Shown here: in pieces, positions 19,987 to 37,400 of the stretch
How the letters are laid out: every line of letters begins with the position of its first letter
How positions within the stretch are numbered: the stretch's first letter is position 1
NCBI GenBank assembly: GCA_023435305.1
Contig: JAEYRV010000027.1
Location: 59,114-123,113, forward strand
Direction: 5' to 3'
Origin: Bacillota bacterium
GTDB taxonomy: Bacteria; Bacillota; Clostridia; Acetivibrionales; DTU013
Length of the DNA stretch: 64,000 bases
Program-made: the position numbers and the translations under genes
Notes under the pieces: generated by a model
Database searches by the model: none
What the model saw: only the letters and a program-made list of their open reading frames with translations
Told to the model about the DNA's origin: nothing

Positions 19987-22900
19987 GTGAAAAAGCTCAA
20001 GTCTGTTTTGTCATTCTTTCTTACTGCAAGCATACTGATAGCATTATTCTGCCCGATAACGGCGGCAGGCGGCGCTGAAGGTCCTGCCGGCCCTATCATA
20101 GCGGACCACAGCAATGCCACGCTGGCAAAGCTGGAAGCAATTCCTGTTGAGTGGATCAACAAGGCAAAATCCGACCTTCATATCTATTTCAACCATACCT
20201 CGCACGGGAGCCAGATCCCGACCGGCATGACCGGGCTTGTGAACTTCAGGGGCAGCCAATATGCCTGGAATAGCAGCGGCAGCAACGGGGCGCTGTATCT
20301 GGCCGATACATACAGTACAGATCTCGGTGACGCAGATTGGCCAAATATAACGCGCAATTATCTGAACAGCCATCCGAACATCAACGTGGTCATGTGGTCC
20401 TGGTGCGGACAGGTCAGCGGCTCTACAGAGGCCTATATCAACACCTATCTGAACAACATGAGCCAGTTGGAAAGGGAATATCCCAATGTGAAGTTCGTCT
20501 ATATGACAGGACATACCGACGGCACGGGAGAAAGCGGCAGTCTTCACCGCAGAAATGAGCAGATCCGCCAATACTGCCGTACAAATAACAAAATACTGTT
20601 TGATTTCGCCGATATCGAAAGCCATGACCCGGACGGCAATTATTATATGAATAAGGCAGTCAATGACAATTGCGACTATGACTCGGACGGAAACGGATCA
20701 CGGGATAAAAACTGGGCAACCGTCTGGCAAAACAGCCACACCCGCAATGTAGACTGGTTCGACTGTGATCCCGCCCACACACAGGCACTGAATGGAAATA
20801 TGAAAGCCTATGCGGCATGGTACCTTTGGGCAAGGCTCGCCGGATGGGACGGAGGCACTCAAGGCACGACCCAGCCGACAACTTCAGTCAGCCAGCTTAC
20901 AGCAAGGCACTACAACGGGCAGACTATTCTGACCTGGAATGAGATCCCGGAAGTTACAGCGGCAATTCCCGGCACAATGACACCGCAGCAGGTGAAGGAT
21001 CTAAGATCATCGTTCAATAATATAACCTATAGGATATACCGATCCACATCCCCTATTACATCAGTTACAGGACTGTCCCCGATAAAGACAGTCACTACAC
21101 TGAGCGGATGGGACGATGAGTTTTACGGACGAGAAAACAATAATGTCAGTACCCAGAACTGTCCCCGTTTTGTAGTTGTAAAAGATACAAATAATATCGC
21201 TGCTGCTCCGGTATCTGCAAATACAGCTGTGAGTGCATATAATCCTGTTGCTGCAGGAACTGCTTATTATGCTGTAACTGTTGTACGCAACAGTGTCGAG
21301 GAAAAGTTGATTGGCAGCGGAAATACCGTAATGGTCAATGAAACTGTGGGACAGGGAATTCCAATCCTGCAAAAGGTGGAAACACAAACGGACTATTTCT
21401 ACACCCAGGGGATATCGACCCATTACTATTATACCCGGTGGGAATCCCCTCCGAACAGCAATGTTCAGGGAATGCCCCATGATTACAAGGTAATTGTCCC
21501 GCAATCCTATCAACAGGGTACACCGGCGCCTGTGTATATGAGCTTCCATGGATGGAGCAGCAGTATGCATAGTATCTCCGCCTGGTGGCTCAACTATAGT
21601 AAGGGGACGATCGTCATCACTTCGAATGAGAATCCCTATGACTGGTGGACGGGCTATCATGAAAAATACGGCATTGGAGAGCGTTCACAACAGAATTGGT
21701 CCTCCGGCGTTGTTCGGCCCTATACTCAAAACAGGCTCAACTCCTTCTATGACTGGGCGGCCACCAAATGGAGCTTCGACCGCAGCCGCACCATTTCAGG
21801 CGGAGTATCCATGGGGGGATCGGGTTCCGTCATGTATGGGATCAGAAACCCGGACCGTATCGCCTGGGTCTATTCCTGGGTAGGCGTTCATGTGCCTGCC
21901 GAGTCCCCGACCTTCAGGAGCTCCTATCAGGGAGTTTATGGTGAGCTTGAATGGCAGATCAAATATGAGGATGGCATAACTCCAGCCTTCAGCTTTTATG
22001 ATGATGACTGGTATCTTCGCAATCACATATCGGATGAGACCCCCTTCATCACATTTTCAAACGGTAAGAATGACGGCAGTATCGGCTGGAGCCAGGCTGT
22101 CAAATTTGTTAATGCGCTGCAGGACACAAAGAGGCCTCATATATTTTACTGGGGTCAGGGCGGACATAACCAGAGGACTTTGAACCCGCCGGATATAAAC
22201 GGGATCAGTTCCGAGAGTGCAAACCCCATAGATATCCGCACCAATCAGAGTCTGCCTGCGTTTACAAAATGCAGCCTTGATGATAAACCCGGAAACGGCA
22301 GCACCAATAACGGAGATGCATCCGGCCAGATCAACGCATATATGTTCTGGAAAACAGAAGACATCGTTGACACACAAAGCAGATGGGAAATGACTGTGGG
22401 TGCGGTTCAGACAGCACCTGCCCAGTCCTGTACCGTAAGCCTTACACCAAGGCGCCTCCAGAACTTTGATCCAACTCCCGGAGAGGTCTATCGCTGGAGT
22501 AATACTTCCCTCAGCAATAACACACGTATACAGTCAGGTACCGTCACTGCTGATGCCAATGGATTGATCACGATCGATAATCTGACGGTAAACCGCATCA
22601 CTTCAGCCGGCGGGGGAAACCGTATCGTCATTTACAGCGATGACGGGACTGTCCCTGCCAATAATCCGCCGGTGCTTGCAGGTGAAATAAGCACATTTGA
22701 AGAAGGCAAGACACCCACAAGCATCATACATGTTGCAACAAACGGAAATGATTCTACAGGAAACGGGAGTGCCGCATCACCCTTCAGATCTATCAACCGC
22801 GCTCTGCAAGCGGCGGCTCCCGGAACAGCCATTAGGATCCATCCCGGTACCTATTCGGGCAGGATCAACATCAGCGGCCTGTCTGGGACTGCACAGGCTC

Positions 22901-25900
22901 CCATCTGGATCGGAGGAGTTCCCGGCGAGGCTAAACCGGTGATCACCAGCTCTACAGAAGGTATCCATCTGACAAGAGTACGCTATCTGATCCTTCATGA
23001 CCTGGAGATCTCAAACACATCTGAAAACGCCATAAACTGCGATGACGGCAGCGAATATAACAATATAGATGCCACCAGGTATTTGATATTCCGGGATCTG
23101 TATATCCATGATGTCAATACCTCGGGAAATGAAGACGGCATCAAATTATCCGGTGTCAACGACTACTATATATTGGACTGCGAAATAACCAGGTGCGGAA
23201 ACAATTACGGAAGCGGCATCGACCATGTCGGATGCCACAACGGCATTATTGCCGGCAATTACCTGCATGACTTTGCCGGCACCGGCATCACATCAAAGGG
23301 CGGCAGTGAAAATATCCATATCCGCGGCAATCGCCTGTTCGATTGCGGAGAAAGAGCGGTAAATATCGGCGGCAGTACCGACTTTGCATTTTTCAGGCCG
23401 CCTCTTTCGACCACGCAGCCAAACTATGAGGCCAAGAACATACATGTATACAGCAATCTGATGCGGGGAAGCATCGCTCCGATAGCTTTTGTAGGAGCAA
23501 CAAGCTGCAGTGCTGTGAACAATACAGTCATATCTCCTGAAAATTGGCTGATACGTATCCTGCAGGAGAGGACATCTACTTCCCAGTATATCTTTGGCCC
23601 ATGTGCAAACAATACGGTCGCCAACAACATTTTTTACTATAATGGTTCAGCCCTCTCCCAGTACGGAACGATAAATGTCGGGAACAATACTTCACCTGCA
23701 ACCTTCACGTTCTCGAACAATCTCTGGTACAACTATAACTCACCTCAGAATTCCACACCGAACCTGCCTGTTACTGAAACCGGTGGGATATTCGGTCAGG
23801 ATCCTCTGTTTACCAATCTGGCTGACAATAATATCAGTCTGCATACCAGCAGTCCGGCAGTGGGAAGGGGAGTCAGCAACGAGACTGCATTATATGATTA
23901 CAATGGGGTTCCTTTCGGCAGTCCCAGGAATATCGGCGCAGTTGCAGGAAGCTCTTCTGCTGTTCAGAACCAGCCGCCTGTGCTTGCTTCGATCGGAGCT
24001 AAAACGGTAAACGAAGGCGCAAACCTCTCCTTTACCATCAATGCCACAGACCGCGACCAAGGAGAAACACTCACTTATTCCATCAGTCCGGTCTCACCTT
24101 CAACACTGCCGGCAGGCATCAGCTTCAACTCCACGACCCGAGTATTCAGCTGGACGCCGGGTGATGAGCAGAGCGGGACCTATACATTGCGCTTTACAGT
24201 CAGTGATGGGAAGCAAATCGATTACGAAGATGTTGTGATCACTGTAATGAATATGTCCAACACTACCCCGCAGGGACGCAATGTCAGGGTAACATCAGCT
24301 GCAGAGCTGCGCAGCGCCATCACCAATGCCCAGAATGGTGACACGATACTCATAGCAAACGGAGATTACACAAACGGAAATCCATTGATACTTAACAATG
24401 TGGATAATATATCTATCCGAAGCGAGTCCAATGATCCAACAAAGGTCACTCTTCGCGGGCGCAGCCGCTTTACAGGAACAGGCTCCTATGACGAGCTGGA
24501 TGACATACTGCGCATAGGTGACTGCAACAATGTCCATATATCTGGACTGACACTGACACAGGCTCACGGATATGGTATCAAGCTGGAGCTCGACGGGAAT
24601 TCGAACCCCAATGCGATTTATATAGAAAACTGCCGATTTATAGATATCGGTACGCGCCACATAAAAGGGACCAAGGACAGCAATTCCTCAACGAAGCGTA
24701 TAACAGGCGGAGCAATACGGAACTGCTATTTTGAGAATACAGTTACACCGCCATCCACAGGCGGTTGGCGCTTCGATGGCAACTATGTCGGAGCAATCGA
24801 TATGATGTCACTGGACGGCTGGGTAATCGAGGATAATGAATTCCGCAACATTCATGGAATAAGCGGAGAAGGACGTTCCGCTATAATGATCTGGCATTAT
24901 TCAGAGGATCTGACAATACAGCGGAACCGCATCATCAACTGCGACAGGGGCATCACTCTGGGACTGCCTGGTTCTGACCTTGGCGGCGGGCGTCATGTGA
25001 AGGATGCCATCGTCCGGAACAATTTCATTCTGCCGGGAAGCAGGGCAGGTTATCAGAGCGACGCCGGAATCGAATGCTCCGATGTGGACAATGTAAAGAT
25101 CTATAATAATACGATATGGCGGCTGAAAAATGACTACAACGGAAGAGGTATCCGGTTCATCCAGAACATCGCCAATACACAGATGGTCAACAATCTGGTC
25201 TACGGCAGGCTTGTCTTTGACAACAATCTTACCATCAGCCGGAATGAAAATAACCTGAGCGGCAATTTATCATCCGGATATGTGGTGAATGTATCCTCCG
25301 GAGACCTTCACCTGACATCGTCTGCAGTCGACGCGCTCAACAAGGGAGTGCTGCTTGCGGAAGTTACGGAAGATATTGACGGAAATGCCCGTGGAACAAC
25401 ACCGGATATCGGTGCGGATGAATATATTGCCCCAAGTGGCGGCAACACTAATCCCGGAGGTGGCACTACTAACCCCGGTGGCGGCAACACCAATCCCGGT
25501 GGCGGCATCATCCTTCCTCCTCCACCGGGCGGCGACAATACCACGGATACTCCTACGGATACCTCCACAACGACTCCGGCTACAACAATTGTTTCTGTCA
25601 CGCAATCAGTGGTTGTATCAGGTGGAACAGCCAAGGCTGCTACCAGCGTGGAACAGCTAAGCAGCGCAATAAATCAGGCGGCACCTGACAACGACGGTGT
25701 CAGAAGTATTGCATTGACACTGCCGGAGGTCAGGCAAGCAGGTACATATCTGCAGGAAATCCCCGCTGAAGCCTTCCGAAAAGGAACAGAAAAGGAGCGA
25801 TATGAAATAATAACTCCTCTCGCCTCCATTTCCATACCCGGCAACATGTTCCCGGCAGGTGAGGTAAACAAGCCGCAGAACATGGGGATATCGGTTTCCT

Positions 25901-26745
25901 ATGCGGATAAGTCGCAGATAAAAAAGAACCTTGCCGAGAAAATAGGAGACAGGCCGGTGCTCCAGATCACTGCATATGCTGATGATAAAAAGATCGAATG
26001 GAATAATAAGAAGGCACCGGTCACGATCACAGTTGATTATACTCCGACAGAAAAAGAGTTGAAAAATCCGGATCACATCGTGGTGTGGTATATTGACGGC
26101 AAAGGAAACATTATTCCGGTAACAAACAGCCGATACGACCCTGTGACTAAAAAGGTGACGTTTAAATTGACCCATTTCAGCGATTATGTGATAGCCTATT
26201 CAGAAAAAACCTACAGTGATATTGGCAAGGCCTACGCAAAGGCTGAGATAGAAGCGCTTGCATCCAAAGGCTTCTACGAATGGATAACAGGCAGCAGCTT
26301 CGCACCCGACAGAAACATAACAAGAGGAGAATTCCTGTACTTGCTGGTTACTCTATTGGATCTGCAAGACACAGTCGAGGAGAATTTCTCGGATGTGAAG
26401 TCAACCGATTTTTATTACGAAGCTGCAGGAATCGCTAAAAAATACGGCATATCCAATGGAATCGGCAGCAACAAGCTGGGAGCAGAACAGAGCATCACAC
26501 GTCAGGATATGTCCACAATGATAGTTCGGGCATTGAATGCAGCAGACAGGAAATATCCTGCAGGCAGTATATCTGATCTGAACCAGTTCAAAGATACCGG
26601 AAAGATATCGTCATATGCAAAGGAAAGCCTGATGGCGCTTGTAAAAGCCGGTATTCTCAAGGGTTCCAATGGTTTACTCGATCCGAAGGGCAGCTTTACG
26701 ATGCAGCAGGCTGCGACAGTCATATGGCGGTTATATAACGAATGA
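19987..26745 (+). CDS. 2252-aa SLH-anchored multi-domain surface enzyme (esterase + two right-handed beta-helix modules + cadherin-like domain)
   Basis: GTG start with GGAGG 8 nt upstream, followed by a signal peptide. An alpha/beta-hydrolase region carries GVSMG (Ser608, nt 21808-21810). The first beta-helix module spans aa ~912-1325 (SPFRSINRALQAAAPGTAIRIHPGTY). A cadherin/He_PIG-like domain spans aa ~1327-1422. The second beta-helix module spans aa ~1430-1815. Three C-terminal SLH motifs occupy aa ~2075-2252. Confidence 0.9.
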   Translation: MKKLKSVLSFFLTASILIALFCPITAAGGAEGPAGPIIADHSNATLAKLEAIPVEWINKAKSDLHIYFNHTSHGSQIPTGMTGLVNFRGSQYAWNSSGSNGALYLADTYSTDLGDADWPNITRNYLNSHPNINVVMWSWCGQVSGSTEAYINTYLNNMSQLEREYPNVKFVYMTGHTDGTGESGSLHRRNEQIRQYCRTNNKILFDFADIESHDPDGNYYMNKAVNDNCDYDSDGNGSRDKNWATVWQNSHTRNVDWFDCDPAHTQALNGNMKAYAAWYLWARLAGWDGGTQGTTQPTTSVSQLTARHYNGQTILTWNEIPEVTAAIPGTMTPQQVKDLRSSFNNITYRIYRSTSPITSVTGLSPIKTVTTLSGWDDEFYGRENNNVSTQNCPRFVVVKDTNNIAAAPVSANTAVSAYNPVAAGTAYYAVTVVRNSVEEKLIGSGNTVMVNETVGQGIPILQKVETQTDYFYTQGISTHYYYTRWESPPNSNVQGMPHDYKVIVPQSYQQGTPAPVYMSFHGWSSSMHSISAWWLNYSKGTIVITSNENPYDWWTGYHEKYGIGERSQQNWSSGVVRPYTQNRLNSFYDWAATKWSFDRSRTISGGVSMGGSGSVMYGIRNPDRIAWVYSWVGVHVPAESPTFRSSYQGVYGELEWQIKYEDGITPAFSFYDDDWYLRNHISDETPFITFSNGKNDGSIGWSQAVKFVNALQDTKRPHIFYWGQGGHNQRTLNPPDINGISSESANPIDIRTNQSLPAFTKCSLDDKPGNGSTNNGDASGQINAYMFWKTEDIVDTQSRWEMTVGAVQTAPAQSCTVSLTPRRLQNFDPTPGEVYRWSNTSLSNNTRIQSGTVTADANGLITIDNLTVNRITSAGGGNRIVIYSDDGTVPANNPPVLAGEISTFEEGKTPTSIIHVATNGNDSTGNGSAASPFRSINRALQAAAPGTAIRIHPGTYSGRINISGLSGTAQAPIWIGGVPGEAKPVITSSTEGIHLTRVRYLILHDLEISNTSENAINCDDGSEYNNIDATRYLIFRDLYIHDVNTSGNEDGIKLSGVNDYYILDCEITRCGNNYGSGIDHVGCHNGIIAGNYLHDFAGTGITSKGGSENIHIRGNRLFDCGERAVNIGGSTDFAFFRPPLSTTQPNYEAKNIHVYSNLMRGSIAPIAFVGATSCSAVNNTVISPENWLIRILQERTSTSQYIFGPCANNTVANNIFYYNGSALSQYGTINVGNNTSPATFTFSNNLWYNYNSPQNSTPNLPVTETGGIFGQDPLFTNLADNNISLHTSSPAVGRGVSNETALYDYNGVPFGSPRNIGAVAGSSSAVQNQPPVLASIGAKTVNEGANLSFTINATDRDQGETLTYSISPVSPSTLPAGISFNSTTRVFSWTPGDEQSGTYTLRFTVSDGKQIDYEDVVITVMNMSNTTPQGRNVRVTSAAELRSAITNAQNGDTILIANGDYTNGNPLILNNVDNISIRSESNDPTKVTLRGRSRFTGTGSYDELDDILRIGDCNNVHISGLTLTQAHGYGIKLELDGNSNPNAIYIENCRFIDIGTRHIKGTKDSNSSTKRITGGAIRNCYFENTVTPPSTGGWRFDGNYVGAIDMMSLDGWVIEDNEFRNIHGISGEGRSAIMIWHYSEDLTIQRNRIINCDRGITLGLPGSDLGGGRHVKDAIVRNNFILPGSRAGYQSDAGIECSDVDNVKIYNNTIWRLKNDYNGRGIRFIQNIANTQMVNNLVYGRLVFDNNLTISRNENNLSGNLSSGYVVNVSSGDLHLTSSAVDALNKGVLLAEVTEDIDGNARGTTPDIGADEYIAPSGGNTNPGGGTTNPGGGNTNPGGGIILPPPPGGDNTTDTPTDTSTTTPATTIVSVTQSVVVSGGTAKAATSVEQLSSAINQAAPDNDGVRSIALTLPEVRQAGTYLQEIPAEAFRKGTEKERYEIITPLASISIPGNMFPAGEVNKPQNMGISVSYADKSQIKKNLAEKIGDRPVLQITAYADDKKIEWNNKKAPVTITVDYTPTEKELKNPDHIVVWYIDGKGNIIPVTNSRYDPVTKKVTFKLTHFSDYVIAYSEKTYSDIGKAYAKAEIEALASKGFYEWITGSSFAPDRNITRGEFLYLLVTLLDLQDTVEENFSDVKSTDFYYEAAGIAKKYGISNGIGSNKLGAEQSITRQDMSTMIVRALNAADRKYPAGSISDLNQFKDTGKISSYAKESLMALVKAGILKGSNGLLDPKGSFTMQQAATVIWRLYNE
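25438..25506 (+). repeat. in-frame 21-nt tandem repeats encoding GGNTNPG x3 linker
   Basis: It encodes GGNTNPGGGTTNPGGGNTNPGGG, followed by a P/T-rich linker inside the giant ORF. Confidence 0.85.
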
Positions 26746-26818: not shown

Positions 26819-27319
26819 TCACTCTGACAGGATGGGTCCGCTTGCAGCAGAGCATCCTTTTTTGAAACTCTCAAACTCACAAATTATATCCGGATGCATT
26901 TCGAGGAACCTGTTCAACATATCGATATTTCTCAATGTATTGCTGCTTATATTATGCTCGATCAGCTCTGTCTCCGTCAGCAAATCGTCATCGGTCCCTA
27001 TGCAGCTTAGGAATTTTTCAATAATATTATGCCTTTTCAGGAGGAATTCGCCTATTTCTTTGCCGCGCCCGGTCAAAAAAATGATTCCGTATTTCTTGTA
27101 GTCCAACAATTCCAGCTCTGTGAGCTTCTGCACCATTTTTGTGGCAGATGAAGGCTTTACGTGCAGCATCTCCGATAAAGTATTGATACGCATGTATCCT
27201 GTCTCATGAATGTTCCTGTAGATCATTTCGAGATAGTCCTCCATTGCAGGGGTCAGCAGCTTATCCTCCTGTGCAAGCAGCTGGTAGCCACGGACCGTAT
27301 GAAAATCATTTTGCTGCAT
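26819..27319 (-). CDS. DtxR/MntR-family metal-dependent transcriptional repressor
   Basis: TPAMEDYLEMIY...SEMLHVKPSSATKMVQKL is an HTH of the DtxR type. It is divergent from feoAB. Confidence 0.8.
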   Translation of the reverse strand: MQQNDFHTVRGYQLLAQEDKLLTPAMEDYLEMIYRNIHETGYMRINTLSEMLHVKPSSATKMVQKLTELELLDYKKYGIIFLTGRGKEIGEFLLKRHNIIEKFLSCIGTDDDLLTETELIEHNISSNTLRNIDMLNRFLEMHPDIICEFESFKKGCSAASGPILSE

Positions 27320-27481: not shown

Positions 27482-27721
27482 ATGACCGATCGATATATTC
27501 CCCTTAGTCAGCTGCCCCTGGGCAGAAAGGCAAAGGTCAGGGCACTTACCTCCGACGGGCCTGCCCGCAGAAGGATGCTGGATCTCGGACTGATCTCTGA
27601 TACGCCGGTCGAAGCCCTGCAAAAAAGCCCATCCGGCGATCCTACTGCATATAGCATCCGCGGAGCAGTAATAGCACTGCGCTCGGAGGAAGCAAGTAAA
27701 ATCATGGTTGAGGCTCACTAA
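27482..27721 (+). CDS. feoA: ferrous iron transport protein A
   Basis: A 79-aa FeoA/SH3-like protein (LSQLPLGRKAKVRAL...RRRMLDLGL) with an AAAGGAGG RBS. Confidence 0.9.
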   Translation: MTDRYIPLSQLPLGRKAKVRALTSDGPARRRMLDLGLISDTPVEALQKSPSGDPTAYSIRGAVIALRSEEASKIMVEAH

Positions 27722-27748: not shown

Positions 27749-29899
27749 ATGGGACTTACCAGCCAATCTACCGGTACCAGTGTGTTGGGCAGTGAACTAA
27801 GAATTGAACGCACATCAGCCAGTGACAGAGTCATCGCCCTCGCAGGAAATCCTAATGTGGGAAAAAGCACGGTTTTCAACAGCTTGACAGGCCTGAACCA
27901 GCACACGGGCAACTGGCCGGGTAAAACTGTCACCAATGCCCAGGGTAAATACAGGCACAAGGACACGAATTTCATTATGGTAGACATCCCCGGTACCTAT
28001 TCCCTTATGGCAAACTCTGCAGAAGAAGAGGTTGCAAGAGATTTTATATGCTTCGGTAAGCCTGACGCTGCAGTTGTGGTAACCGATGCCACCTGCCTGG
28101 AAAGGAATCTGAATCTTGTCCTTCAGACTTTGGAAATCACAGATAAGGTCGTTATATGCGTCAACCTGATCGATGAGGCAAACAGAAAGAATATCTCAAT
28201 AAACTGTGAAAGGCTTGCCCGGCTGCTTGGAGTGCCCGTAGTCCCAACGGACGCCAGAAGAGGAAAGGGTCTTGAAGAACTCATGGATGCTGTTTATGCA
28301 GTCGCCTGTAAGCACACATCTGCAATACCCGTGTGCATTACATATGATGATATCATTGAACAGGCAGTAAAAATAATTCAGCCAAGAATATATGAATTGG
28401 CAGACAGAAAAATCAACAGCCGATGGGCAGCACTGAAGCTATTAGATGGAGATCCTTCACTATTGAGTTCATTGGATAAATATCTGGGCTTTAGTCTTCA
28501 AGAGGATTCTTTACTTGAAGACCTGCTTGGCACCGCTGAAAAACTTCTAGCCGATAATGGTATACAGACTGGCCAAATACGCGACAGGACTGTATCAAGG
28601 CTCGTTCACACAGCTGAGGATATAAGCAGAGATACTGTCACCTTCCATAACAATCAGTACAATCGTATGGACCGGAAGATCGACAGTATCGTTACCTCAA
28701 GGATCCTGGGAATACCAATCATGCTGTGCCTGCTGGCAGCAATCTTCTGGCTGACTATGGCAGGTGCAAACGTCCCATCTGCTATCATAGCAGATTTCCT
28801 TTTCGGTATTGAAACCAAACTGACTGAGTTGTTTATATCGGCGGGATCACCCGAATGGCTCCATGGTGCATTGGTGCTTGGCATGTACAGGACTCTGGCA
28901 TGGGTGATCTCTGTCATGCTGCCTCCCATGGCCATATTCTTCCCTTTGTTTACCCTGCTTGAGGATTTGGGTTACCTGCCCAGGATCGCTTTTAATCTGG
29001 ATAATTTTTTCAAGAAAGCCTGTGCTCACGGCAAGCAGGCTTTGACCATGTGCATGGGCTTTGGCTGCAATGCAGCGGGAGTTATTGGCTGCAGGATCAT
29101 TGAGTCTCCGAGGGAAAGGCTGATCGCCATACTCACAAATGTCTTTGTGCCCTGTAATGGACGTTTTCCTACATTGATCGCTATCGGTACTGTTTTCATA
29201 GGCGGAACCGCGGGCGGCGCCTTCCGGTCATTGACCTCCACCCTTGCCCTCACTGGGATCGTGATTCTGGGGATCCTTATGACTTTATTGGTATCCAGGA
29301 TACTCTCTAAAACCATATTGAAAGGACTACCCTCCTCCTTCACACTGGAGCTGCCTCCATACCGCAAACCGCAAATCGGCAGGATCATTGTCCGCTCGAT
29401 CCTTGACAGAACGCTGTTTGTATTGGGCCGGGCAGTCGCCATCGCAGCACCGGCGGGTCTGGTGATCTGGCTCATGGCAAATATTTCGGTTGGCGAAGTC
29501 AGTCTGTTGACTTACTGTGCAAATTTTCTCGACCCCTTTGCCAAACTGCTGGGACTGGACGGGTATATCCTGATGGCCTTTATCCTGGGCCTGCCTGCCA
29601 ATGAGATCGTCATTCCCATAATCATCATGAGCTACATGGCCTCCGGCTCCATACTCGAACTGAATGAACTTGAGGACTTAAGGCTTCTTCTTGTATCACA
29701 TGGCTGGACCTGGCTGACCGGTGTGTGCGTAATGCTCTTCTCACTCATGCACTTCCCTTGCGGCACGACTTTATGGACGATCCGTAAAGAAACACAAAGT
29801 ATGAAATGGACGCTTGCTTCTTTTGCAATACCAACTGCAGCAGGAATCATAATATGCTTTGTTGTTGCTAATGTGGTACGTCTGCTCGGATTGGTATAG
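27749..29899 (+). CDS. feoB: ferrous iron transport protein B
   Basis: An N-terminal G domain (GNPNVGKST, DIPGTYS) plus a polytopic membrane domain. The RBS is AGGAGG. Confidence 0.95.
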   Translation: MGLTSQSTGTSVLGSELRIERTSASDRVIALAGNPNVGKSTVFNSLTGLNQHTGNWPGKTVTNAQGKYRHKDTNFIMVDIPGTYSLMANSAEEEVARDFICFGKPDAAVVVTDATCLERNLNLVLQTLEITDKVVICVNLIDEANRKNISINCERLARLLGVPVVPTDARRGKGLEELMDAVYAVACKHTSAIPVCITYDDIIEQAVKIIQPRIYELADRKINSRWAALKLLDGDPSLLSSLDKYLGFSLQEDSLLEDLLGTAEKLLADNGIQTGQIRDRTVSRLVHTAEDISRDTVTFHNNQYNRMDRKIDSIVTSRILGIPIMLCLLAAIFWLTMAGANVPSAIIADFLFGIETKLTELFISAGSPEWLHGALVLGMYRTLAWVISVMLPPMAIFFPLFTLLEDLGYLPRIAFNLDNFFKKACAHGKQALTMCMGFGCNAAGVIGCRIIESPRERLIAILTNVFVPCNGRFPTLIAIGTVFIGGTAGGAFRSLTSTLALTGIVILGILMTLLVSRILSKTILKGLPSSFTLELPPYRKPQIGRIIVRSILDRTLFVLGRAVAIAAPAGLVIWLMANISVGEVSLLTYCANFLDPFAKLLGLDGYILMAFILGLPANEIVIPIIIMSYMASGSILELNELEDLRLLLVSHGWTWLTGVCVMLFSLMHFPCGTTLWTIRKETQSMKWTLASFAIPTAAGIIICFVVANVVRLLGLV

Positions 29900-30045
29900 A
29901 TTCCGCCAAGCTATCCTTGCACTGTTGCCTGTTCATTTTCTCCTTATTGAAATTTTTCAATTACTATTGAAAAACATCCCAATGTATGCTTTAATTGATG
30001 ATAATTTGTCCTGGTTTTACAAATTTCATTAAGTGAGGGCACATA

Positions 30046-31134
30046 ATGAGACAGAAGATTTTATGCTTAATTGTGTTATTTGCGCTAGTACTGGCGTTTA
30101 CAGGCTGTGGCGGCAGCAAAACGGTATCTCCTGAAAATCAGGCTGCCGGATCCGATGTGAAAACAGAAGATAATACAGGGTCAGATAACACCGATACTGC
30201 ATCAACAGGCGAAACAGATATCACCACAGTTGACCAGAATGAATCAGGGGACGTTCAACAGAACGATCAACAAAGCAATGCTGATACTCTTGTCAGTGAA
30301 GACTTTTTAATGCAGATAGAAGACGTCTTTTCCATAACAGGCAGAGGTACGGTAGCAACAGGCCTGATCCTGTCAGGTCAGGTATCTACTGGTGCCGAAG
30401 TCGAGCTGGTCGGTTTGTCCGACAGCCCAAAAAATGTTGTTATCGGCGGTATCGAGTCCTTCAGAAAGATGTTGGACACTGCAATAGCCGGTGATAATGT
30501 CGGCATAATGATAAATGAAATTGACAAAGCTGATGTCCAAAGAGGACAAGTACTGGCTGCCAAAGGTTCGATCTCTGCACACAATACATTTTCAGCAGAT
30601 ATCGTTTTTACAGAAAAGCAGGCTGATGCTTTCTTCAGCCGGGGCGGTTTCGACGGGCTAAGCTATTTCTTTACCACAGATTCAAACACTGTTTACTATT
30701 TTGGACAGACACTGCCTGATGAAAACGGCAAGCTGTCCGTAACAGCACAAATGCTTGCCAAGCTCCCTATGAATGAAGGCACCGAATTTAGAGTCAAACG
30801 CGACGGAAAAACAATAGCTTCAGGTGTAGTGACAGGTGTTGATGTAGAAATCACAGCTGTACCCGGTTTTGAAAATATCAGTATACCCGACAGCGAAACA
30901 CAGTCTGCTGCTGACGACGACGCTACAAATTGCAGTATCAAGCTTTTGAACTATGGTACTCAAAAAGTACAGGTCATCAAGATAATTCGCGAGGTAACCG
31001 GGCTGGATCTGAAGGAAGCCAAAGCCCTTGCTGATTATACACCTTCGATCATCAAAGAAAACATAACTCTGGAAGAAGCCCAGAGCATAAAATCAAAGCT
31101 GGAGGAAGCCGGAGCAGCTGCCGAAATCATATGA
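30046..31134 (+). CDS. lipoprotein fusing EF-Tu domains II-III to a ribosomal L7/L12 C-terminal domain (no G domain)
   Basis: The lipobox is LAFTG|C (Cys21), followed by an acidic linker at aa 22-85. Residues 86-265 align with EF-Tu domains II/III (IEDVFSITGRGTVATG, AGDNVGIMI...VQRGQVLA, TEFRVKRDGKTIASGVVTGV). Residues 296-362 match the L7/L12 CTD (KVQVIKIIREVTGLDLKEAKALAD...KLEEAGAAAEI). Confidence 0.8.
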   Translation: MRQKILCLIVLFALVLAFTGCGGSKTVSPENQAAGSDVKTEDNTGSDNTDTASTGETDITTVDQNESGDVQQNDQQSNADTLVSEDFLMQIEDVFSITGRGTVATGLILSGQVSTGAEVELVGLSDSPKNVVIGGIESFRKMLDTAIAGDNVGIMINEIDKADVQRGQVLAAKGSISAHNTFSADIVFTEKQADAFFSRGGFDGLSYFFTTDSNTVYYFGQTLPDENGKLSVTAQMLAKLPMNEGTEFRVKRDGKTIASGVVTGVDVEITAVPGFENISIPDSETQSAADDDATNCSIKLLNYGTQKVQVIKIIREVTGLDLKEAKALADYTPSIIKENITLEEAQSIKSKLEEAGAAAEII

Positions 31135-32186: not shown

Positions 32187-35100
32187 TCATACCCTTATAT
32201 AATCGATTTCGAAATACTCCTCATTCAATTTCGTATTCGTTGAAAAATTCGTTAGTTGTTTCATGAACTCATCTTCAGAACCAATATGCTTTTTGAGCCT
32301 GAAGCAGGCAGCACAATTCCTCCCGTTCTCTTTTGCGCGGTATAATGCATAATCGGCAATATTTATCATCTGCTCAAGGCTGAAAAGTATAGGATTATCT
32401 GCGTCCAGAGGTATCTGCGCATATCCCAGCGAGCAGGTCTTATATATTGTCTTGTCCTCATAAACCGTCATTGGTGTTTCACTTATCGTTCTCAAAACCT
32501 TTTTCGGAAATTCTCCCAGATATTCCGGCTTTGTATTGTTCAATATGATGAGGAATTCTTCTCCGCCCCATCGGATGACGAAATCACCGTCTCTGACTAT
32601 CTGTTTGAGAAGCTTTGATATCTCTACCAAAACATTATCTCCAGCTGAATGGCCATAAGTATCATTTACCTCTTTGAAATAATCGATGTCGATAAGAAAT
32701 ACTCCAATAACGTTATCTTTTATTGACAGATTCCTCTTCTCAGTATTTTCAACTATCCTTCTTTTACTCTGAACAAATTGAGATATTATGTCATATACGA
32801 ACTCAAAGGTATACCTTCGGTTGTAAAGGTCGGTCAACGGATCATGAAGTGACAGCTCTTTAAGCTTTTCATTGGCACTGTTGAGCTGGATCGTTCTTTC
32901 TCTGACCATATCCTCCATGTTTTCATAAAGCCTGGCATTCTCAATTGAGATCGAAGCCTGCGAAGACATGATTTTCAGTATCTCAAGTCTTTCCGATGTA
33001 AATACGCTGTCGGACAGGTTATTCTCCAGATAAACAACACCCTTCAGGCGATTTTGATAGATGACCGGCATGCACAATAATGATTTGATCTGATTATCCA
33101 TGATATAAGAGTTGTTCTGGTATTTTATGTCCATACAGGCATTGTGGATAACTATAGTTTCCATTGTCCTTGTCACATACTGCACGATTTCAGGACAAAG
33201 GACCCCACTTTCCGCAAAGGGAAGTGACTGCATGACCTGAAGCCTGTTGGAGACCACATCCTGCATCGCCTCTATATAGAACCGGTCGTCGGCTTCATTC
33301 TTCAGCAGCAGGCAGCCCCGCTGAGCGCCTGCGTTTTCAATCATTGTCCTGATCAATATCGTCAATAGCTTGTCGATTTTTATTTCGCTGGAGATGGCCT
33401 GAGTAGATTTCAAAATTGAATTTACATCGATAAATTCACAGAATGAAGCAGAATATGTTCCCTTTATTCCACGTACAGCTTCATCGCTCATAAAATAGTG
33501 AGAATACTGCCTTTCCAGCAGCACTGCCTTCCGATAGGCTCCCCATTGCCTGTAAAGATACTTCGCTTCCCTGATATATGCTTTTCCAATGGTTTCATCT
33601 CCCGCCTCCAGCCAGAACTTCCCGTACGATTCATTGATCAGCGCCCTGTACTGGACGAAATCATTGTTCCCTATGGAGTCCAGCGCCTTTTTAAAGAAAT
33701 CGACGACAGTATCCAGCGGTTCATTATTAATGACCGCAATTTCTGCAGAAAGCAGATAGTATTTATGTGCGAAATTATCCGGGCAATTTTCTGACCAAAT
33801 CCTCAATTTTTGTTGAATATCAACAAGAGATGCTTTTATTTGCGTCTTTTCTTCATCCGATGCTTTTTTCCATTTGTATACGAGTATGAGACCACGGAAC
33901 AAATAGTGATCCGGGATGGGATAATCGGACAGCCCGGCGAAAACTATCCTCTCGGCCAGATCATTCCATCTCCCGGCAGCTTCCATGTTGCCTGTGATAA
34001 TATTCTCATAGGTATTGTATTGATAGAATCTGCACAGGAAGGACAGATCCCTGGTACTTTCTATAGTCGCCAGCATTTCCCGGTCTTCTTTATCGAAGTC
34101 GGTTCCGTCCTCATTTACGGGGACTGTCTGGAGCTTTTTGATAATATAATTGATGATTTGGGTCAAAAACAGCGGCATGGCTGTTTTAGCCCTGCTGAGG
34201 ATCTCTATGGTACTTTCCGCTTCCTGTTTCAGCTCTGTCAGGTTTTTTCCGACCCAAAGCAATAAGTGTACCTTGTGTGACAAAGCGTAGGCAGCATGTT
34301 GGATATCACCTGTTTCAAGGCCTTTGCTGTAGGCCATGTCATAGTATTTGAGGCTTTCAGCATAATGTGCCTTCCAGTAGGAGCAGAATGTGAACCCGAA
34401 GTAAACTGCAGGTTTCAACGATTCGGCATTGAATTTATTGATTATTGAAAATGCCGCCTCACCGAGCCTGTAGCTGGTATTGTAATCCTTGAGCATCGAA
34501 CCCATAACTATACCGCAGTCAGTAAAGCATTTGCTCGACAGCGGCGATGTTCCATATGTACAGGTCATTTCAAACATCATCAGCGAAGCCAGGATATATA
34601 ATGACGGATTGGTCTGAAGTGCCGGAGGGACCACTTGGTAAAGCAGCTGCATGACCATTGCTTTATCCGGAGCGTTCATTACAGGAAGCTCCACAAGCTC
34701 TTCAACAGGTGTTTGTGCCAGAAAGGCCTGCATTTTGCCAATGCCCTCCTGTATTTTCAGGCCGATCTCCTGCTCATTTTCAGGCAGGGATACGCCAAAT
34801 AATGATAAGCTTCGGCGTATTTCATCAATCGCTTCGAAAAGTCTGCCCTGAAACTCAAGAATCTGAACTTTAACATTGGAGACAGCACCCTTGTTGATGT
34901 TGGTAACAGCCAATTGCGACAAATGTCCGCAAAGCTCGTCAGCCTTGACTAATTCTCCGGATAACAAGGCGGAGGCCGCAAGCTCCAATTCCAGCGGGAA
35001 CAGCCTGCCGGGCTCGCTGCTCCATTCTTCCTCCGTCAATTGGTATACCGCGGTTTCAAAATATTTCATGGCCGCTGAAAAAGCGCCTGATTTCTTTGCT

Positions 35101-37400
35101 TTATTACCAGCCATGGCATTCAGATCGGATAATTCGACACGTTCATCCTTCTCATTGACCAGAGCTCTGCCGATATTCAGGTGATTCACCAGGTCAAAAA
35201 GCGAGTCCGCCCTGTTTGTTTCCCGTAAGGTTATTTTGAAAGCCTTCAGATATTCGCGTCCTATCAATAAATGGATTTCCGATTGTTCGTTTTCGGACAT
35301 CAGGGACTGTACAGCCTGCCGGATCCGGTCATGAGCAAAGCAAAGCTTTACATCCAGATCCTGCGAGAGGTCTATGCCCTTCTGAGCTTTTATCAGGCGG
35401 TAATCATTATTTAGGGGCAGAATGATCTCATCTTCAATAGCGATCCATATATCCTTACCCAGCACCTCATACGATTTCTTACTTACTTTCGCGAGCATTG
35501 ACAGATCAAACTGATTTCCGATGCAGGCAGCGAGCTTAAGCACAGTCAGGGTACCTTCCGGGAGTGATTCAAGAGAACTTACCAGAAGCTCCACTACATT
35601 GTCAGTGATTTCGACAGTTTTCATCCTTTCAAGATCATAATCCCATTGTCCTCTTTCCGACCTGAAGGTGAAATATCCCCGGGAATAAAACGTGTTCAGC
35701 AGCTTATCAATGAAAAATGGATTACCCTTTGTCTTGGACAAAACAAGCTCGGTAAGTGGTTCAGTTTCCCTCTGGCTGCTATGCAGCGTATCTGATATCA
35801 GGCGGTTCACAGCATTTGGCTTCAATGGTTCAAGGCTTATCTGACGGCATGGCGTGTCAAATCCCTGATAATTGTTTTCCAGGTCTTTAATAAGCTGCAG
35901 CAGCGGATGTCCATCCCGCACCTCATTGTTCCTGTAAGCCCCTAATAAGTAAACATGCTTTACGTTACCCGCTCCCAGGATATACTTGATCAGTTCCAGT
36001 GTAGAAACATCACTCCAATGAAGATCATCAAGAAAGATCACCAACGGATGCTCTTGTGCTGCAATAGCCCTGACAAATTCAAGAAAGACAAGCTGGAAGC
36101 GATTCTGAGCTTCAAGGGGATTAAGCTCGGACACCCCGGGCTGAGGTCCGATGATCTGTTCCAGCTCGGGAATGATATCCGTAATGACCTGCCCATTGCT
36201 TCCAAGGGCTTCATCCAGGCGTTTTCTCCAATTATCCAGACTGCTTTGTGTTTCGGAAAGCAGTTGCTTTATCAGGTCCCGAATCGCCTGGATCATACCG
36301 TAATATGGAATATTTCGTTCCAGATGGTTACACTTCCCGGATGTATAGTATCCTTTTTTATACATCACGGGCTTGCGTATCTCCTGGATCAATGAGGATT
36401 TTCCGATCCCTGAAAAACCACTGACTAAAAGAAGCCTGCAATGACCTTCCGCAGCTTTTTCAAAGTCTTCGGCCATGATCCGCATCTCATCTTCGCGGCC
36501 GTATAGCTTGTGTGGGATCTCAAATCTGTTGACGATATCTTCCTCACCGGGTTTGAAGTTTCTGACTTCCTTCGGTTTTACAATCATTTGGCGGCAGTAC
36601 TCGAGATCTTTTTTTACTCCAAATGCCGATTGATATCTTTCCTCAACCGTCTTAGAGAGCATTTTCATAATGATTCCCGACAGAGGATCCGGGATCTCGG
36701 GACATATGTCTTTTGGAGGAATTGGTGTTTTAGCTATATGTCCATATACGATCTCCGATTCATCCTCACCTGAGAAAGGCAGCTGACCGGTGAATAACTC
36801 ATAAAGGGTAACTCCCAGTGAATAAATATCGGTTCTGTAATCGACCGGCCTGTTAACTCTGCCGGTTTGTTCAGGAGAAATATAAAACAAGTTTCCTTCC
36901 GGATTGCTCATATCGATACTTTGAGATGATTCTCTGAATAACTCGGCAGAGATGCCAAAATCAATCAATTTGACCTGACCGGTACTCTGATCCCAGATGA
37001 AGTTTGTCGGATTTATGTCCTTATGAATGATGTTCTGTTCATGTATTTGGATCAATGAGTTTGTCATTTGTATCGCCAGGGACAATCCGTCGTAAATACC
37101 TGTCTTAACGGATCCCAACGTCCTGGCAACGGATTCTCCTTCTATATCCTCCATTATGATGGCAAGGCTCTTATTGTACTTTTCGATGGAGTAGGCCTTT
37201 ATTATCCCGTCGCCTGTCAGCTTGTTCATAATTTCATATTCCCGCATAAAGGCGGACAATTCCCTGGATGTCGGGTATTCTCTGTTTAGAAGTTTTACTA
37301 TGACCGGGCATTTATCAGAATCACGGGTTCCGCGATATATAGCTGAATTGTCGCATTTATAGATTTCTTCATTGATATTGAAACCAGTCAGATGTATCAT
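32187..37400 (-). CDS. 1737-aa Ser/Thr protein kinase / STAND (AAA_16) NTPase / helical repeat / GAF / GGDEF diguanylate cyclase
   Basis: Kinase motifs are VIVK, HKDINPTN, DFG and SPE (aa 1-275). Walker A is GFSGIGKSS (aa 328-336) and Walker B is VIFLDDLHW. The GAF domain spans aa ~1323-1492 (nt ~32925-33434). The GGDEF domain spans aa ~1516-1700, with an RDGD I-site and GGEEF at nt 32553-32567. Confidence 0.9.
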   Translation of the reverse strand: MIHLTGFNINEEIYKCDNSAIYRGTRDSDKCPVIVKLLNREYPTSRELSAFMREYEIMNKLTGDGIIKAYSIEKYNKSLAIIMEDIEGESVARTLGSVKTGIYDGLSLAIQMTNSLIQIHEQNIIHKDINPTNFIWDQSTGQVKLIDFGISAELFRESSQSIDMSNPEGNLFYISPEQTGRVNRPVDYRTDIYSLGVTLYELFTGQLPFSGEDESEIVYGHIAKTPIPPKDICPEIPDPLSGIIMKMLSKTVEERYQSAFGVKKDLEYCRQMIVKPKEVRNFKPGEEDIVNRFEIPHKLYGREDEMRIMAEDFEKAAEGHCRLLLVSGFSGIGKSSLIQEIRKPVMYKKGYYTSGKCNHLERNIPYYGMIQAIRDLIKQLLSETQSSLDNWRKRLDEALGSNGQVITDIIPELEQIIGPQPGVSELNPLEAQNRFQLVFLEFVRAIAAQEHPLVIFLDDLHWSDVSTLELIKYILGAGNVKHVYLLGAYRNNEVRDGHPLLQLIKDLENNYQGFDTPCRQISLEPLKPNAVNRLISDTLHSSQRETEPLTELVLSKTKGNPFFIDKLLNTFYSRGYFTFRSERGQWDYDLERMKTVEITDNVVELLVSSLESLPEGTLTVLKLAACIGNQFDLSMLAKVSKKSYEVLGKDIWIAIEDEIILPLNNDYRLIKAQKGIDLSQDLDVKLCFAHDRIRQAVQSLMSENEQSEIHLLIGREYLKAFKITLRETNRADSLFDLVNHLNIGRALVNEKDERVELSDLNAMAGNKAKKSGAFSAAMKYFETAVYQLTEEEWSSEPGRLFPLELELAASALLSGELVKADELCGHLSQLAVTNINKGAVSNVKVQILEFQGRLFEAIDEIRRSLSLFGVSLPENEQEIGLKIQEGIGKMQAFLAQTPVEELVELPVMNAPDKAMVMQLLYQVVPPALQTNPSLYILASLMMFEMTCTYGTSPLSSKCFTDCGIVMGSMLKDYNTSYRLGEAAFSIINKFNAESLKPAVYFGFTFCSYWKAHYAESLKYYDMAYSKGLETGDIQHAAYALSHKVHLLLWVGKNLTELKQEAESTIEILSRAKTAMPLFLTQIINYIIKKLQTVPVNEDGTDFDKEDREMLATIESTRDLSFLCRFYQYNTYENIITGNMEAAGRWNDLAERIVFAGLSDYPIPDHYLFRGLILVYKWKKASDEEKTQIKASLVDIQQKLRIWSENCPDNFAHKYYLLSAEIAVINNEPLDTVVDFFKKALDSIGNNDFVQYRALINESYGKFWLEAGDETIGKAYIREAKYLYRQWGAYRKAVLLERQYSHYFMSDEAVRGIKGTYSASFCEFIDVNSILKSTQAISSEIKIDKLLTILIRTMIENAGAQRGCLLLKNEADDRFYIEAMQDVVSNRLQVMQSLPFAESGVLCPEIVQYVTRTMETIVIHNACMDIKYQNNSYIMDNQIKSLLCMPVIYQNRLKGVVYLENNLSDSVFTSERLEILKIMSSQASISIENARLYENMEDMVRERTIQLNSANEKLKELSLHDPLTDLYNRRYTFEFVYDIISQFVQSKRRIVENTEKRNLSIKDNVIGVFLIDIDYFKEVNDTYGHSAGDNVLVEISKLLKQIVRDGDFVIRWGGEEFLIILNNTKPEYLGEFPKKVLRTISETPMTVYEDKTIYKTCSLGYAQIPLDADNPILFSLEQMINIADYALYRAKENGRNCAACFRLKKHIGSEDEFMKQLTNFSTNTKLNEEYFEIDYIRV

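Follow-up and report, generated by a model that had tools for sequence, protein, structure and literature searches.

A 64,000-nucleotide stretch of Bacillota contig JAEYRV010000027.1 (here called the window) contains, on its forward strand at 30046..31134, an open reading frame (ORF) of 362 codons that starts with ATG and lies downstream of feoA and feoB. A first-pass annotation of this DNA, made without database searches, had described the gene product as an exported lipoprotein composed of two EF-Tu domains and the C-terminal domain (CTD) of ribosomal protein L7/L12, lacking a GTPase domain. The exact coordinates of the ORF were borne out, and so was the layout: reading from the N terminus, the frame carries a signal peptide, an acidic linker, EF-Tu domains 2 and 3 (D2 and D3, together D2D3), a disordered tether and an L12 CTD (Table 1). 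As far as sequence can tell, it is thereby confirmed that the gene encodes a predicted exported, lipid-anchored combination of EF-Tu D2-D3 with an L12 CTD, without a GTPase domain.

Table 1. Features in and around the gene; positions refer to the window unless another locus is named, and residues to the 362-amino-acid protein.
Feature	Position	Strand	Basis
MntR-like DtxR-family repressor	26819-27319	-	137.1 bits against a cut-off of 138
feoA	27482-27721	+	Window neighbor
feoB	27749-29899	+	Window neighbor
Predicted sigma-A-type promoter: -35 TTGAAA (29967-29972), 17-nucleotide spacer, extended -10 TGcTTTAAT (29987-29995)	29967..29995	+	Sequence reading
Conserved AT-rich inverted repeat (TTGATGATAATTTGT ... 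ACAAATTTCATTAA) between -10 and ribosome-binding site	29995..30032	+	Phylogenetic footprint
Ribosome-binding site GAGGG, 7 nucleotides upstream of ATG	30035..30039	+	Sequence; invariant in footprint alignment
Type-II signal peptide, residues 1-20, and predicted lipidated Cys21	30046..30108	+	PROSITE-type lipobox rule
Acidic low-complexity tether, residues 22-82, net charge -11	30109..30291	+	Composition
EF-Tu domain 2 beta-barrel, residues 83-175, aminoacyl-A76/thiopeptide pocket largely kept	30292..30570	+	Pfam, PDB, Foldseek
EF-Tu domain 3 beta-barrel, residues 176-266, fold kept	30571..30843	+	NCBIfam, PDB, AF2
Second flexible acidic tether, residues 267-295	30844..30930	+	AF2, family alignment
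Ribosomal protein L7/L12 C-terminal domain, residues 296-362, and stop codon	30931..31134	+	Pfam, NCBIfam, PDB
Regions of P0138 and P0148	L097 2518-10448 and L096 4235-14429

The profile and structure searches that the first-pass annotation had proposed as checks recovered both folds. Among the Pfam models, GTP_EFTU_D2 (PF03144) matched residues 101 to 171 (E = 2.7e-15), and GTP_EFTU_D3 matched only residues 227 to 265, below its cut-off. NCBIfam EF-Tu models aligned residues 81 to 265 with profile positions 205 to 394 (E of ~1e-40 to 1e-43), the alignment beginning at position 205 to 209 of 394 to 396, and a phmmer search against PDB sequences returned EF-Tu D2-D3 with an E value of 4.6e-39; the NCBIfam and PDB alignments extend through D3 to residues 264 to 265. 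An AlphaFold2 (AF2) model of residues 80 to 362, calculated from 83 sequences because a run with 8 sequences left D2 unmodelled, has a predicted local distance difference test (pLDDT) score of 89 and comprises two confident beta-barrels and a confident L12 CTD. According to phmmer, AF2 (pLDDT >90) and Foldseek, with EF-Tu D2-D3 as the top Foldseek matches (E = 8e-20, probability 1.0), the two barrels are arranged as in EF-Tu. Full membership is a different matter, as the protein scored 137.8 bits against the cut-off of 522.4 for TIGR00485 (about a quarter) and 146.5 bits against the cut-off of 449 for PRK00049. The G-domain motifs (P-loop, D[CT]PGH, NKxD and SA[LK]) are absent throughout the 362 amino acids, and a Pfam scan of the protein gave no match to the GTPase domain PF00009, in line with what had been noted at first pass.

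The claim that the protein tracks EF-Tu "block for block" holds for D2, with 56% identity to the EF-Tu consensus; for D3, at 26%, it does not. Accordingly distributed are the positions that are invariant in canonical EF-Tu, of which ~0.61 to 0.68 were kept in D2 versus 0.29 to 0.33 in D3 (p ~2e-4). Within D2, the residues lining the aminoacyl-A76/thiopeptide pocket were kept at 0.80, versus 0.55 to 0.63 for the other invariant D2 positions (p of 0.04 to 0.18), and the two glycines at which mutations confer GE2270A resistance are still glycine in 11/15 and 13/15 family members, respectively. In D3, the residues for contact with the G domain have been lost. Thermus aquaticus EF-Tu residues R330, H331, Q341 and T350, which we take from the ternary-complex structure to be the tRNA-binding residues of D3, correspond to F197, S198, L205 and N214 in the window protein, positions that vary across the family. 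Since these contacts to the tRNA T-stem have been replaced and since the mature protein carries, by composition, a net charge of -28, RNA binding is unlikely, and we ruled out extracellular binding of RNA or tRNA as the role of this protein.

For the C-terminal module, the proposed L7/L12 CTD at residues ~296 to 362 was recovered by Pfam PF00542 over residues 297 to 361 (E = 8.8e-22; profile positions 2 to 66 of 67). Residues 285 to 361 aligned with positions 48 to 124 of 125 in TIGR00855, with a score of 77.8 against a cut-off of 84.4, and a phmmer search against PDB found Thermotoga maritima L7/L12 (1dd3; E = 1.3e-14); identity to sampled canonical CTDs reached up to 57%. The N-terminal L12 domain, responsible for dimerization and L10 binding, and the hinge are absent, their place before the CTD being taken by D3 and the tether, and the protein therefore cannot join the ribosomal stalk. 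The factor-binding face was kept at 0.84, versus 0.68 for other conserved L12 positions, with K65, A83 and K84 found in 15/15 members, R73 and L80 in 14/15 and K70 in 13/15. Two further CTD residues, D330 and S334, are conserved specifically in this family.

The predicted type-II signal peptide with Cys21 withstood a rule-based check: the N terminus, MRQK-ILCLIVLFALVLAF-TG↓C21, satisfies a PROSITE PS51257-type rule, with AFTG↓C as the lipobox and two K/R residues in the n-region. From this lipobox, the mature protein is predicted to face the outside. The strict rule was passed by 13 of 16 single-module family sequences (a set that includes the near-identical P0001 and the short P0199), each with a cysteine at position 21. 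Another member, P0139 (PTAC), fails the rule narrowly and also has a cysteine at position 21, and P0006 and L090 have an uncleaved transmembrane (TM) anchor in place of the lipobox; every protein with D2D3 and L12 and an intact N terminus begins with a lipobox, a signal peptide or a TM helix. That the N-terminal segment might be only an anchor, with the domains facing the cytoplasm and regulating the G domain of the adjacent FeoB, is a scenario suggested by the usual role of the two modules in contacting or stimulating translational GTPases and by the N-terminal G domain of FeoB, which is encoded immediately upstream. Given the lipobox pattern just described, which places the mature protein outside, the positive charges preceding the hydrophobic segment and the location of most members away from feoB, we consider it highly improbable.

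Both linkers appear to be flexible. The first, described earlier as acidic and of low complexity and found to be just that, varies in length and sequence across the family, is absent in L089 and was modelled with a pLDDT of ~25. The second ranges from 0 to ~50 residues among family members, and 18 of its residues in the window protein (276 to 293) are disordered (AF2 pLDDT <50).

That the gene is intact and not a decayed tuf gene, as had been concluded from its continuous reading frame, is upheld by its relatives and by their pattern of substitution. Identical copies of the protein were found on four independent contigs (NCBI, ENA and Logan), orthologues at 98, 74, 72, 70, 60, 49 and 42% identity share its layout, and the architecture is kept down to 35%. 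Nei-Gojobori estimates of the ratio of nonsynonymous to synonymous substitution rates (dN/dS) within the clade of the window protein were 0.08 to 0.19 for D2, 0.22 to 0.34 for D3 and 0.07 to 0.33 for the L12 CTD, with mostly higher values for the two linkers (0.15 to 0.98 taken together; 0.18 to 0.61 for the first and 0.15 to 0.98 for the second), showing that purifying selection acts on each of the three folded modules. Metagenome assemblies do contain EF-Tu chimeras with internally duplicated parts (P0008 to P0010), which could have lent some credit to the idea that the ORF is a tuf/rplL chimera in decay, arose during assembly or is nonfunctional for another reason. The independent contigs, the orthologues of identical architecture from 98% to 35%, the domain dN/dS values of 0.07 to 0.34 and the conservation of promoter and ribosome-binding site effectively rule this out. 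As for those EF-Tu sequences themselves (P0008, P0009, P0010, P0278 and P0279; 308 to 519 amino acids), the end of the G domain and D2 are internally duplicated, and they most likely arose when copies of tufA and tufB were joined in the assembly of metagenomes. One irregularity was seen at the 5' end of the gene, where dS of the signal peptide and first linker (30046-30291) was 0.07 to 0.47, versus 0.66 to 1.1 for D2 (30292-30570) in the same pairs (window, L001 and L004), which hints at recombination or mosaicism.

Besides its own ribosome-binding site, which the first-pass annotation had reported, the gene has a predicted promoter of its own. This sigma-A-type promoter, which a generic promoter scan did not report, is common to 5/5 loci of the window clade, including L005, in which a histidine kinase gene instead of feoB is located upstream, and the 150 nucleotides upstream of the gene are strongly conserved in the same 5/5 members. 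Between the -10 element and the ribosome-binding site, the footprint contains an AT-rich inverted repeat with half-sites resembling TGATAAT and ATTATGA at an unusual spacing, which could be an operator or a leader hairpin. The repeat was also detected in L001, and its motif is unique within the window; the length of its loop differs among orthologues, with a deletion in L001 and a duplication in L004. It is not a canonical Fur box and has no match in Rfam. On the basis of these elements, the gene behaves as a probable stand-alone transcription unit. Transcription of feoAB might in addition run on into the gene, given that no terminator was predicted in the interval that follows feoB.

The extent of the family was established with an exhaustive HMMER profile scan of 1.84 billion representatives at 50% identity, sorted with local HMMs for D2D3 and L12. 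This yielded ~12 clusters with the single-module layout of anchor, D2D3 and L12 CTD (P0002, P0007, P0130 to P0132, P0136, P0137, P0139, P0141, P0167, P0199 and P0256), to which a metagenome scan added two loci, L089 and L090. The count rests on the HMMER scan since the word-indexed profile searches could not be used as counts: a full-length profile of 15 members was swamped by EF-Tu and added only P0137, and a profile of D3 alone gave 651 candidates and missed known members. Likewise, a contig scan with a D3 and L12 alignment was uninformative on spread, one of its patterns, DV[QE]RGQVL, being generic to EF-Tu and the listed matches being tuf and rplL. The loci have GC contents of 32 to 48%, the relatives were found in metagenomes and metagenome-assembled genomes (MAGs) of environmental or digester type and not in host-associated pathogens, and the best EF-Tu matches of the window protein are in Bacillota. 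The label of one member, which has an SASP gene in its vicinity, reads "hypothetical protein [Clostridiales bacterium]", and JGI calls two relatives "ribosomal protein L7/L12". None of the D2D3 and L12 proteins found has a G domain. This is a rare clostridial family.

The position of the gene after feoAB, correctly noted before, turned out to be a feature of few relatives: a Feo or DtxR neighbor was found in 2 of ~9 lineages. In the window clade (window, P0002, P0003 and P0004), the gene follows feoA-feoB, and a divergent DtxR-family repressor gene is present in the window and in L001, where the flank is visible. In the second lineage, P0007 (42% identity), the gene is divergent from feoB-feoA-feoA and is followed by a DtxR-type gene. 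Elsewhere, a histidine kinase gene lies upstream (P0005), or the neighbors are DUF218 and AzlC/AzlD (P0006), AzlCD, HAD and a ComEC-like lipoprotein (L089), a sugar ABC transporter and an AraC-type response regulator (L090), a TrkA_N-only and a TrkA_C-only ORF on either side (P0137), DUF1287 and MatE (P0131) or a MerR-family gene and a convergent dlt operon (P0132); none of these seven lineages has a Feo or DtxR neighbor. One could imagine an accessory for manganese or iron uptake, i.e., a metal-regulated surface protein that concentrates cations, for example via its acidic tethers, and hands them to FeoB. The arrangement of the window clade and its MntR-like repressor, that of P0007, the missing terminator after feoB and the net charge of -28 would all suit such a role. 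Against it stand the seven lineages just listed, the promoter that is retained where feoB is absent, the missing acidic linker in L089, the lack of a conserved metal-binding motif and the outcome of searches of the loci, in which neither a Fur/DtxR-type operator nor a riboswitch was found: no canonical Fur box occurs near feoA or the gene, the window and P0007 loci have no palindrome in common, and the leader has no Rfam family. We therefore regard the metal-related role as improbable for this protein. A family-wide role as a Feo accessory is ruled out by the variable neighborhoods; a connection with iron or manganese is possible for the window clade and is not the common denominator of the family.

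Several observations on these and other surroundings are worth recording. In the Clostridiales MAG carrying P0137 (L091 5224-9276), the gene and two small ORFs lie between the TrkA_N-only and TrkA_C-only ORFs, and it looks as if a 3.3-kb segment has been inserted into a ktrA/trkA-like gene. The P0132 orthologue (L094 9410-15597 and L095) is convergent with a dltXABCD-like operon (AMP-binding, PP-binding and MBOAT) and an Asp/Glu racemase gene; dlt performs D-alanyl ester chemistry at the outer face of the membrane and EF-Tu D2 binds aminoacyl esters, an association seen in a single lineage. The window itself encodes a 695-amino-acid EF-G paralogue with all five EF-G domains 24 kb upstream of the gene (3754-5844, minus strand) and also contains CtpB-like and PcsB-like genes. 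On either side of the locus lies a giant gene, one for a 2,252-amino-acid surface protein with, by eye, an SLH-like C terminus (19987-26745, plus strand) and one for a 1,737-amino-acid protein in which Ser/Thr kinase, AAA, GAF and GGDEF-like parts were recognized by eye (32187-37400, minus strand).

A search for the architecture and its phyletic spread, also proposed earlier, did lead to the rare family without a G domain described above, but this is not the whole picture: judging from the sequences collected, the window architecture belongs, as a single branch, to a far wider collection of anchored proteins derived from EF-Tu and L12. Closest in composition are three proteins from high-GC loci (55 to 66%) with different domain orders. 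P0138 has a lipobox and a PASTA domain followed by two copies of [L12-D2D3-L12], P0142 has a lipobox, three L12 copies and then D2D3, and P0148 has a signal peptide followed by L12-D2D3-L12-L12-D2D3. The D2D3 modules of this group are 55 to 68% identical to canonical EF-Tu and 34 to 42% identical to those of the window family, which in turn are 47% identical to canonical EF-Tu and 39% identical to the high-GC proteins; the L12 modules follow the same pattern, each group being nearer to canonical L12 than to the other group. Because each group is closer to its canonical parents than to the other and because the domain orders differ, the combination of D2D3 with L12 appears to have been assembled at least twice.

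The neighborhoods of the high-GC proteins have no counterpart at the window gene. P0138 starts 15 nucleotides after a gene for a 1,822-amino-acid caspase (C14)-nSTAND-WD40 protein, and P0148 starts 38 nucleotides after the gene for a secreted C25 (gingipain-type) peptidase, with a C10 (streptopain-type) peptidase gene two genes downstream. The latter arrangement gives some substance to the proposal that the window protein serves a second exported protein as adaptor, scaffold or regulator, with the L12 CTD as a protein-protein or multimerizing module. Its partner could be a secreted cysteine peptidase, which it would inhibit or anchor, or the ecto-G-like domain of an anchored EF-Tu paralogue. 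The CTD is protein binding by origin and has kept its binding face, P0148 is flanked by the two peptidases with a 38-nucleotide gap to the C25 gene, anchored EF-Tu paralogues with a degenerate G domain exist, and an inserted L12/ClpS domain has been termed "multimerizing" by Kaur et al. (PMC7159879). With no conserved neighbor across the ~9 lineages of the window family, no peptidase next to the window gene and a partner that is purely hypothetical, such an adaptor role is rather doubtful.

Single modules have been anchored even more widely. Many Firmicute proteins consist of a lipobox, or of a Zn-ribbon or Q/N-rich cytoplasmic head and one TM helix, followed by a D2D3 ectodomain, and in some of them a degenerate G domain has been retained, its P-loop eroded. 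In low-GC Firmicutes, we also came across the membrane-anchored EF-Tu paralogues P0232, P0210, P0181, P0176, P0277, P0249 and related proteins, in which a Zn-ribbon or Q/N-rich cytoplasmic head and one TM helix precede a complete EF-Tu-like ectodomain with P-loop versions such as GHEDHGKS and GDENHGKE. They look like a class of pseudo-GTPase ectodomains that has apparently not been described. On the L12 side, there are tandem arrays of 3 to 9 L12 CTDs, some of them behind a lipobox or signal peptide (P0134 and P0144), and proteins in which 3 to 6 L12 CTDs are combined with another module (P0159, P0187, P0196, P0251, P0264, P0143 and P0146), namely, a ThsB-like TIR, a QatA/PifA-like KAP NTPase, BspA-type LRR or LRV/HEAT. 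Layouts of this kind are characteristic of proteins that act in immunity or conflict.

These anchored relatives also bear on the possibility that the gene is a genetically fixed form of the "moonlighting" surface EF-Tu, an adhesin or a matrix or polymer binder that attaches the cell to substrates, to other cells or to its own wall or S-layer. There are many reports of full-length EF-Tu on bacterial surfaces although it has no signal sequence (PMC6822514), and here the same domains come with an export signal; many other Firmicute proteins have EF-Tu-like ectodomains behind a TM helix or lipobox, and lipoproteins such as P0134, in which L12 CTDs are strung in tandem like "beads" on Ser-rich linkers, are reminiscent of repeat arrays that bind the cell wall. 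Against this, the known host ligands do not apply to relatives of environmental or digester type, the mature protein has a high negative charge (net -28), and neither sorting, S-layer or wall-binding domains nor recurring adhesion neighbors are present. All in all, an adhesive function of this kind seems rather unlikely.

No catalytic motif was found in the protein sequence, and we infer that the protein is probably noncatalytic and binds something. The reading that we favor, with a probability of roughly 0.3, is that it may be a tethered replica or bait that captures, sequesters or senses extracellular agents that recognize the D2 pocket of EF-Tu or the factor face of L12. The gene is predicted to be transcribed from its own sigma-A-type promoter and its product to take the Sec/signal peptidase II route, so that the mature part would hang outside the cytoplasmic membrane on its acidic disordered tether, the rigid D2-D3 barrel pair carrying the L12 CTD via the second, flexible tether. 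The parts needed for translation are gone (the G domain, the tRNA contacts of D3 and the N-terminal domain of L12). According to the favored reading, the D2 aminoacyl/thiopeptide pocket and the L12 factor face would capture, sequester or sense such agents, candidates being EF-Tu-directed antibiotics, toxins or peptidases, in a manner similar to that of an immunity lipoprotein or an integrated decoy. We favor the replica or bait because the relevant surfaces are retained, because the module pair was apparently assembled convergently and because relatives occur in conflict-type contexts. The decoy idea of the first-pass annotation thus fits the data best, if only modestly.

A number of points weigh against it. 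In the parent families, too, the pocket and face residues stand out as the most conserved, and the contrasts are weak (p of 0.04 to 0.18) or small; in L089 and L090, the equivalents of E271, F261 and R274 in the D2 pocket have changed. Genes for thiopeptides, toxins, immunity or defense do not adjoin the window gene, PADLOC has no match for the window protein, and caspase/EACC1, vWA-MoxR or STAND neighbors are missing from the window. The conflict-type contexts belong to the separately assembled relatives, not to the window family; we know of no extracellular agent that targets the L12 CTD; and a copy anchored at the surface might equally act as a receptor instead of a decoy. Even less probable is a more general proposal, in which Clostridia and high-GC bacteria, having assembled them independently, would use exported, membrane-tethered replicas of translation surfaces as a decoy or bait layer of immunity against EF-Tu- or stalk-directed antibiotics, toxins or peptidases, wired to caspase-STAND (NLR-like) proteins in high-GC bacteria and part of a wider use of integrated decoys that includes the TIR-L12 and KAP-L12 arrays.

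EF-Tu and L7/L12 are textbook cytoplasmic proteins, and it has long been debated whether their detection on cell surfaces, in the absence of an export signal, reflects moonlighting or contamination by lysis. The genes described here indicate that, in some bacteria, dedicated genes send these parts out by the classical lipoprotein route (as predicted), under selection, and therefore that an extracellular role of these folds is real and genetically tractable. The apparently independent reassembly, together with the caspase-STAND, peptidase and TIR/KAP company, argues that the pair does something specific together. While the family is rare, it makes the question of the biological meaning of surface EF-Tu directly testable. 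If a decoy or bait role were true, it would represent a new principle of resistance to EF-Tu-targeting antibiotics and would give prokaryotes an equivalent of the integrated decoys known from plant NLRs. The pipeline labels "ribosomal protein L7/L12", "EF-Tu-like GTPase" and "hypothetical" hide these proteins.

The absence of a described function, noted at first pass, agrees with our own searches: Pfam, NCBIfam and PADLOC hold no dedicated family for the architecture, and we found no literature description of an exported D2D3-L12 fusion, only passing mentions of the modules in PMC7159879. The folds are textbook material; in the libraries and literature searched, the architecture, the predicted location and the exported EF-Tu- and L12-derived families are undescribed. 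By the features examined, the protein does not belong to EF-Tu, bL12, Feo components or known defense systems, and we rate it as outside the known kinds of system.

With EF-Tu (TIGR00485), it has in common homology and fold over residues 83 to 265 and most residues of the aminoacyl-A76/GE2270A pocket; it differs in having no G domain, in being predicted to be exported and lipid anchored and in its lost D3 contacts and, on this basis, cannot act as EF-Tu in translation. With bL12 (TIGR00855), it shares a bona fide CTD with a largely intact factor-binding face, which in bL12 is neither fused C-terminally to EF-Tu barrels nor predicted to lie outside the cell and which here comes without the N-terminal domain. 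Immunity lipoproteins of the LanI/NisI type bind their antibiotic at the outer face of the membrane, a functional analogy only, as they have no sequence relationship to the window protein. Producers of elfamycins and GE2270A possess extra, resistant EF-Tu paralogues that protect against EF-Tu-directed antibiotics; unlike the window protein, these are complete, cytoplasmic, working elongation factors.

A closer parallel in domain content is offered by the systems described by Kaur et al. (eLife, 2020), in which "Elongation Factor Tu domains" are among ~50 variable C-terminal modules of the caspase component and L12/ClpS domains are inserted in vWA proteins (PMC7159879). The position of P0138 after a caspase-STAND-WD40 gene and the L12 arrays with TIR or KAP are reminiscent of these systems, but there the modules are mentioned in passing as parts of large multidomain proteins, no exported stand-alone lipoprotein or D2D3-L12 fusion is described, and none of the neighbors of the window gene encodes a caspase, EACC1, vWA or STAND component. 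Finally, moonlighting EF-Tu occurs on many bacterial surfaces without a signal sequence and by a debated export route (PMC6822514), so that EF-Tu sequence on the bacterial surface, here predicted, is common to both cases. Moonlighting EF-Tu is the full-length housekeeping protein, whereas the window protein is the product of a separate gene that combines D2-D3 alone with a lipoprotein signal and an L12 CTD.

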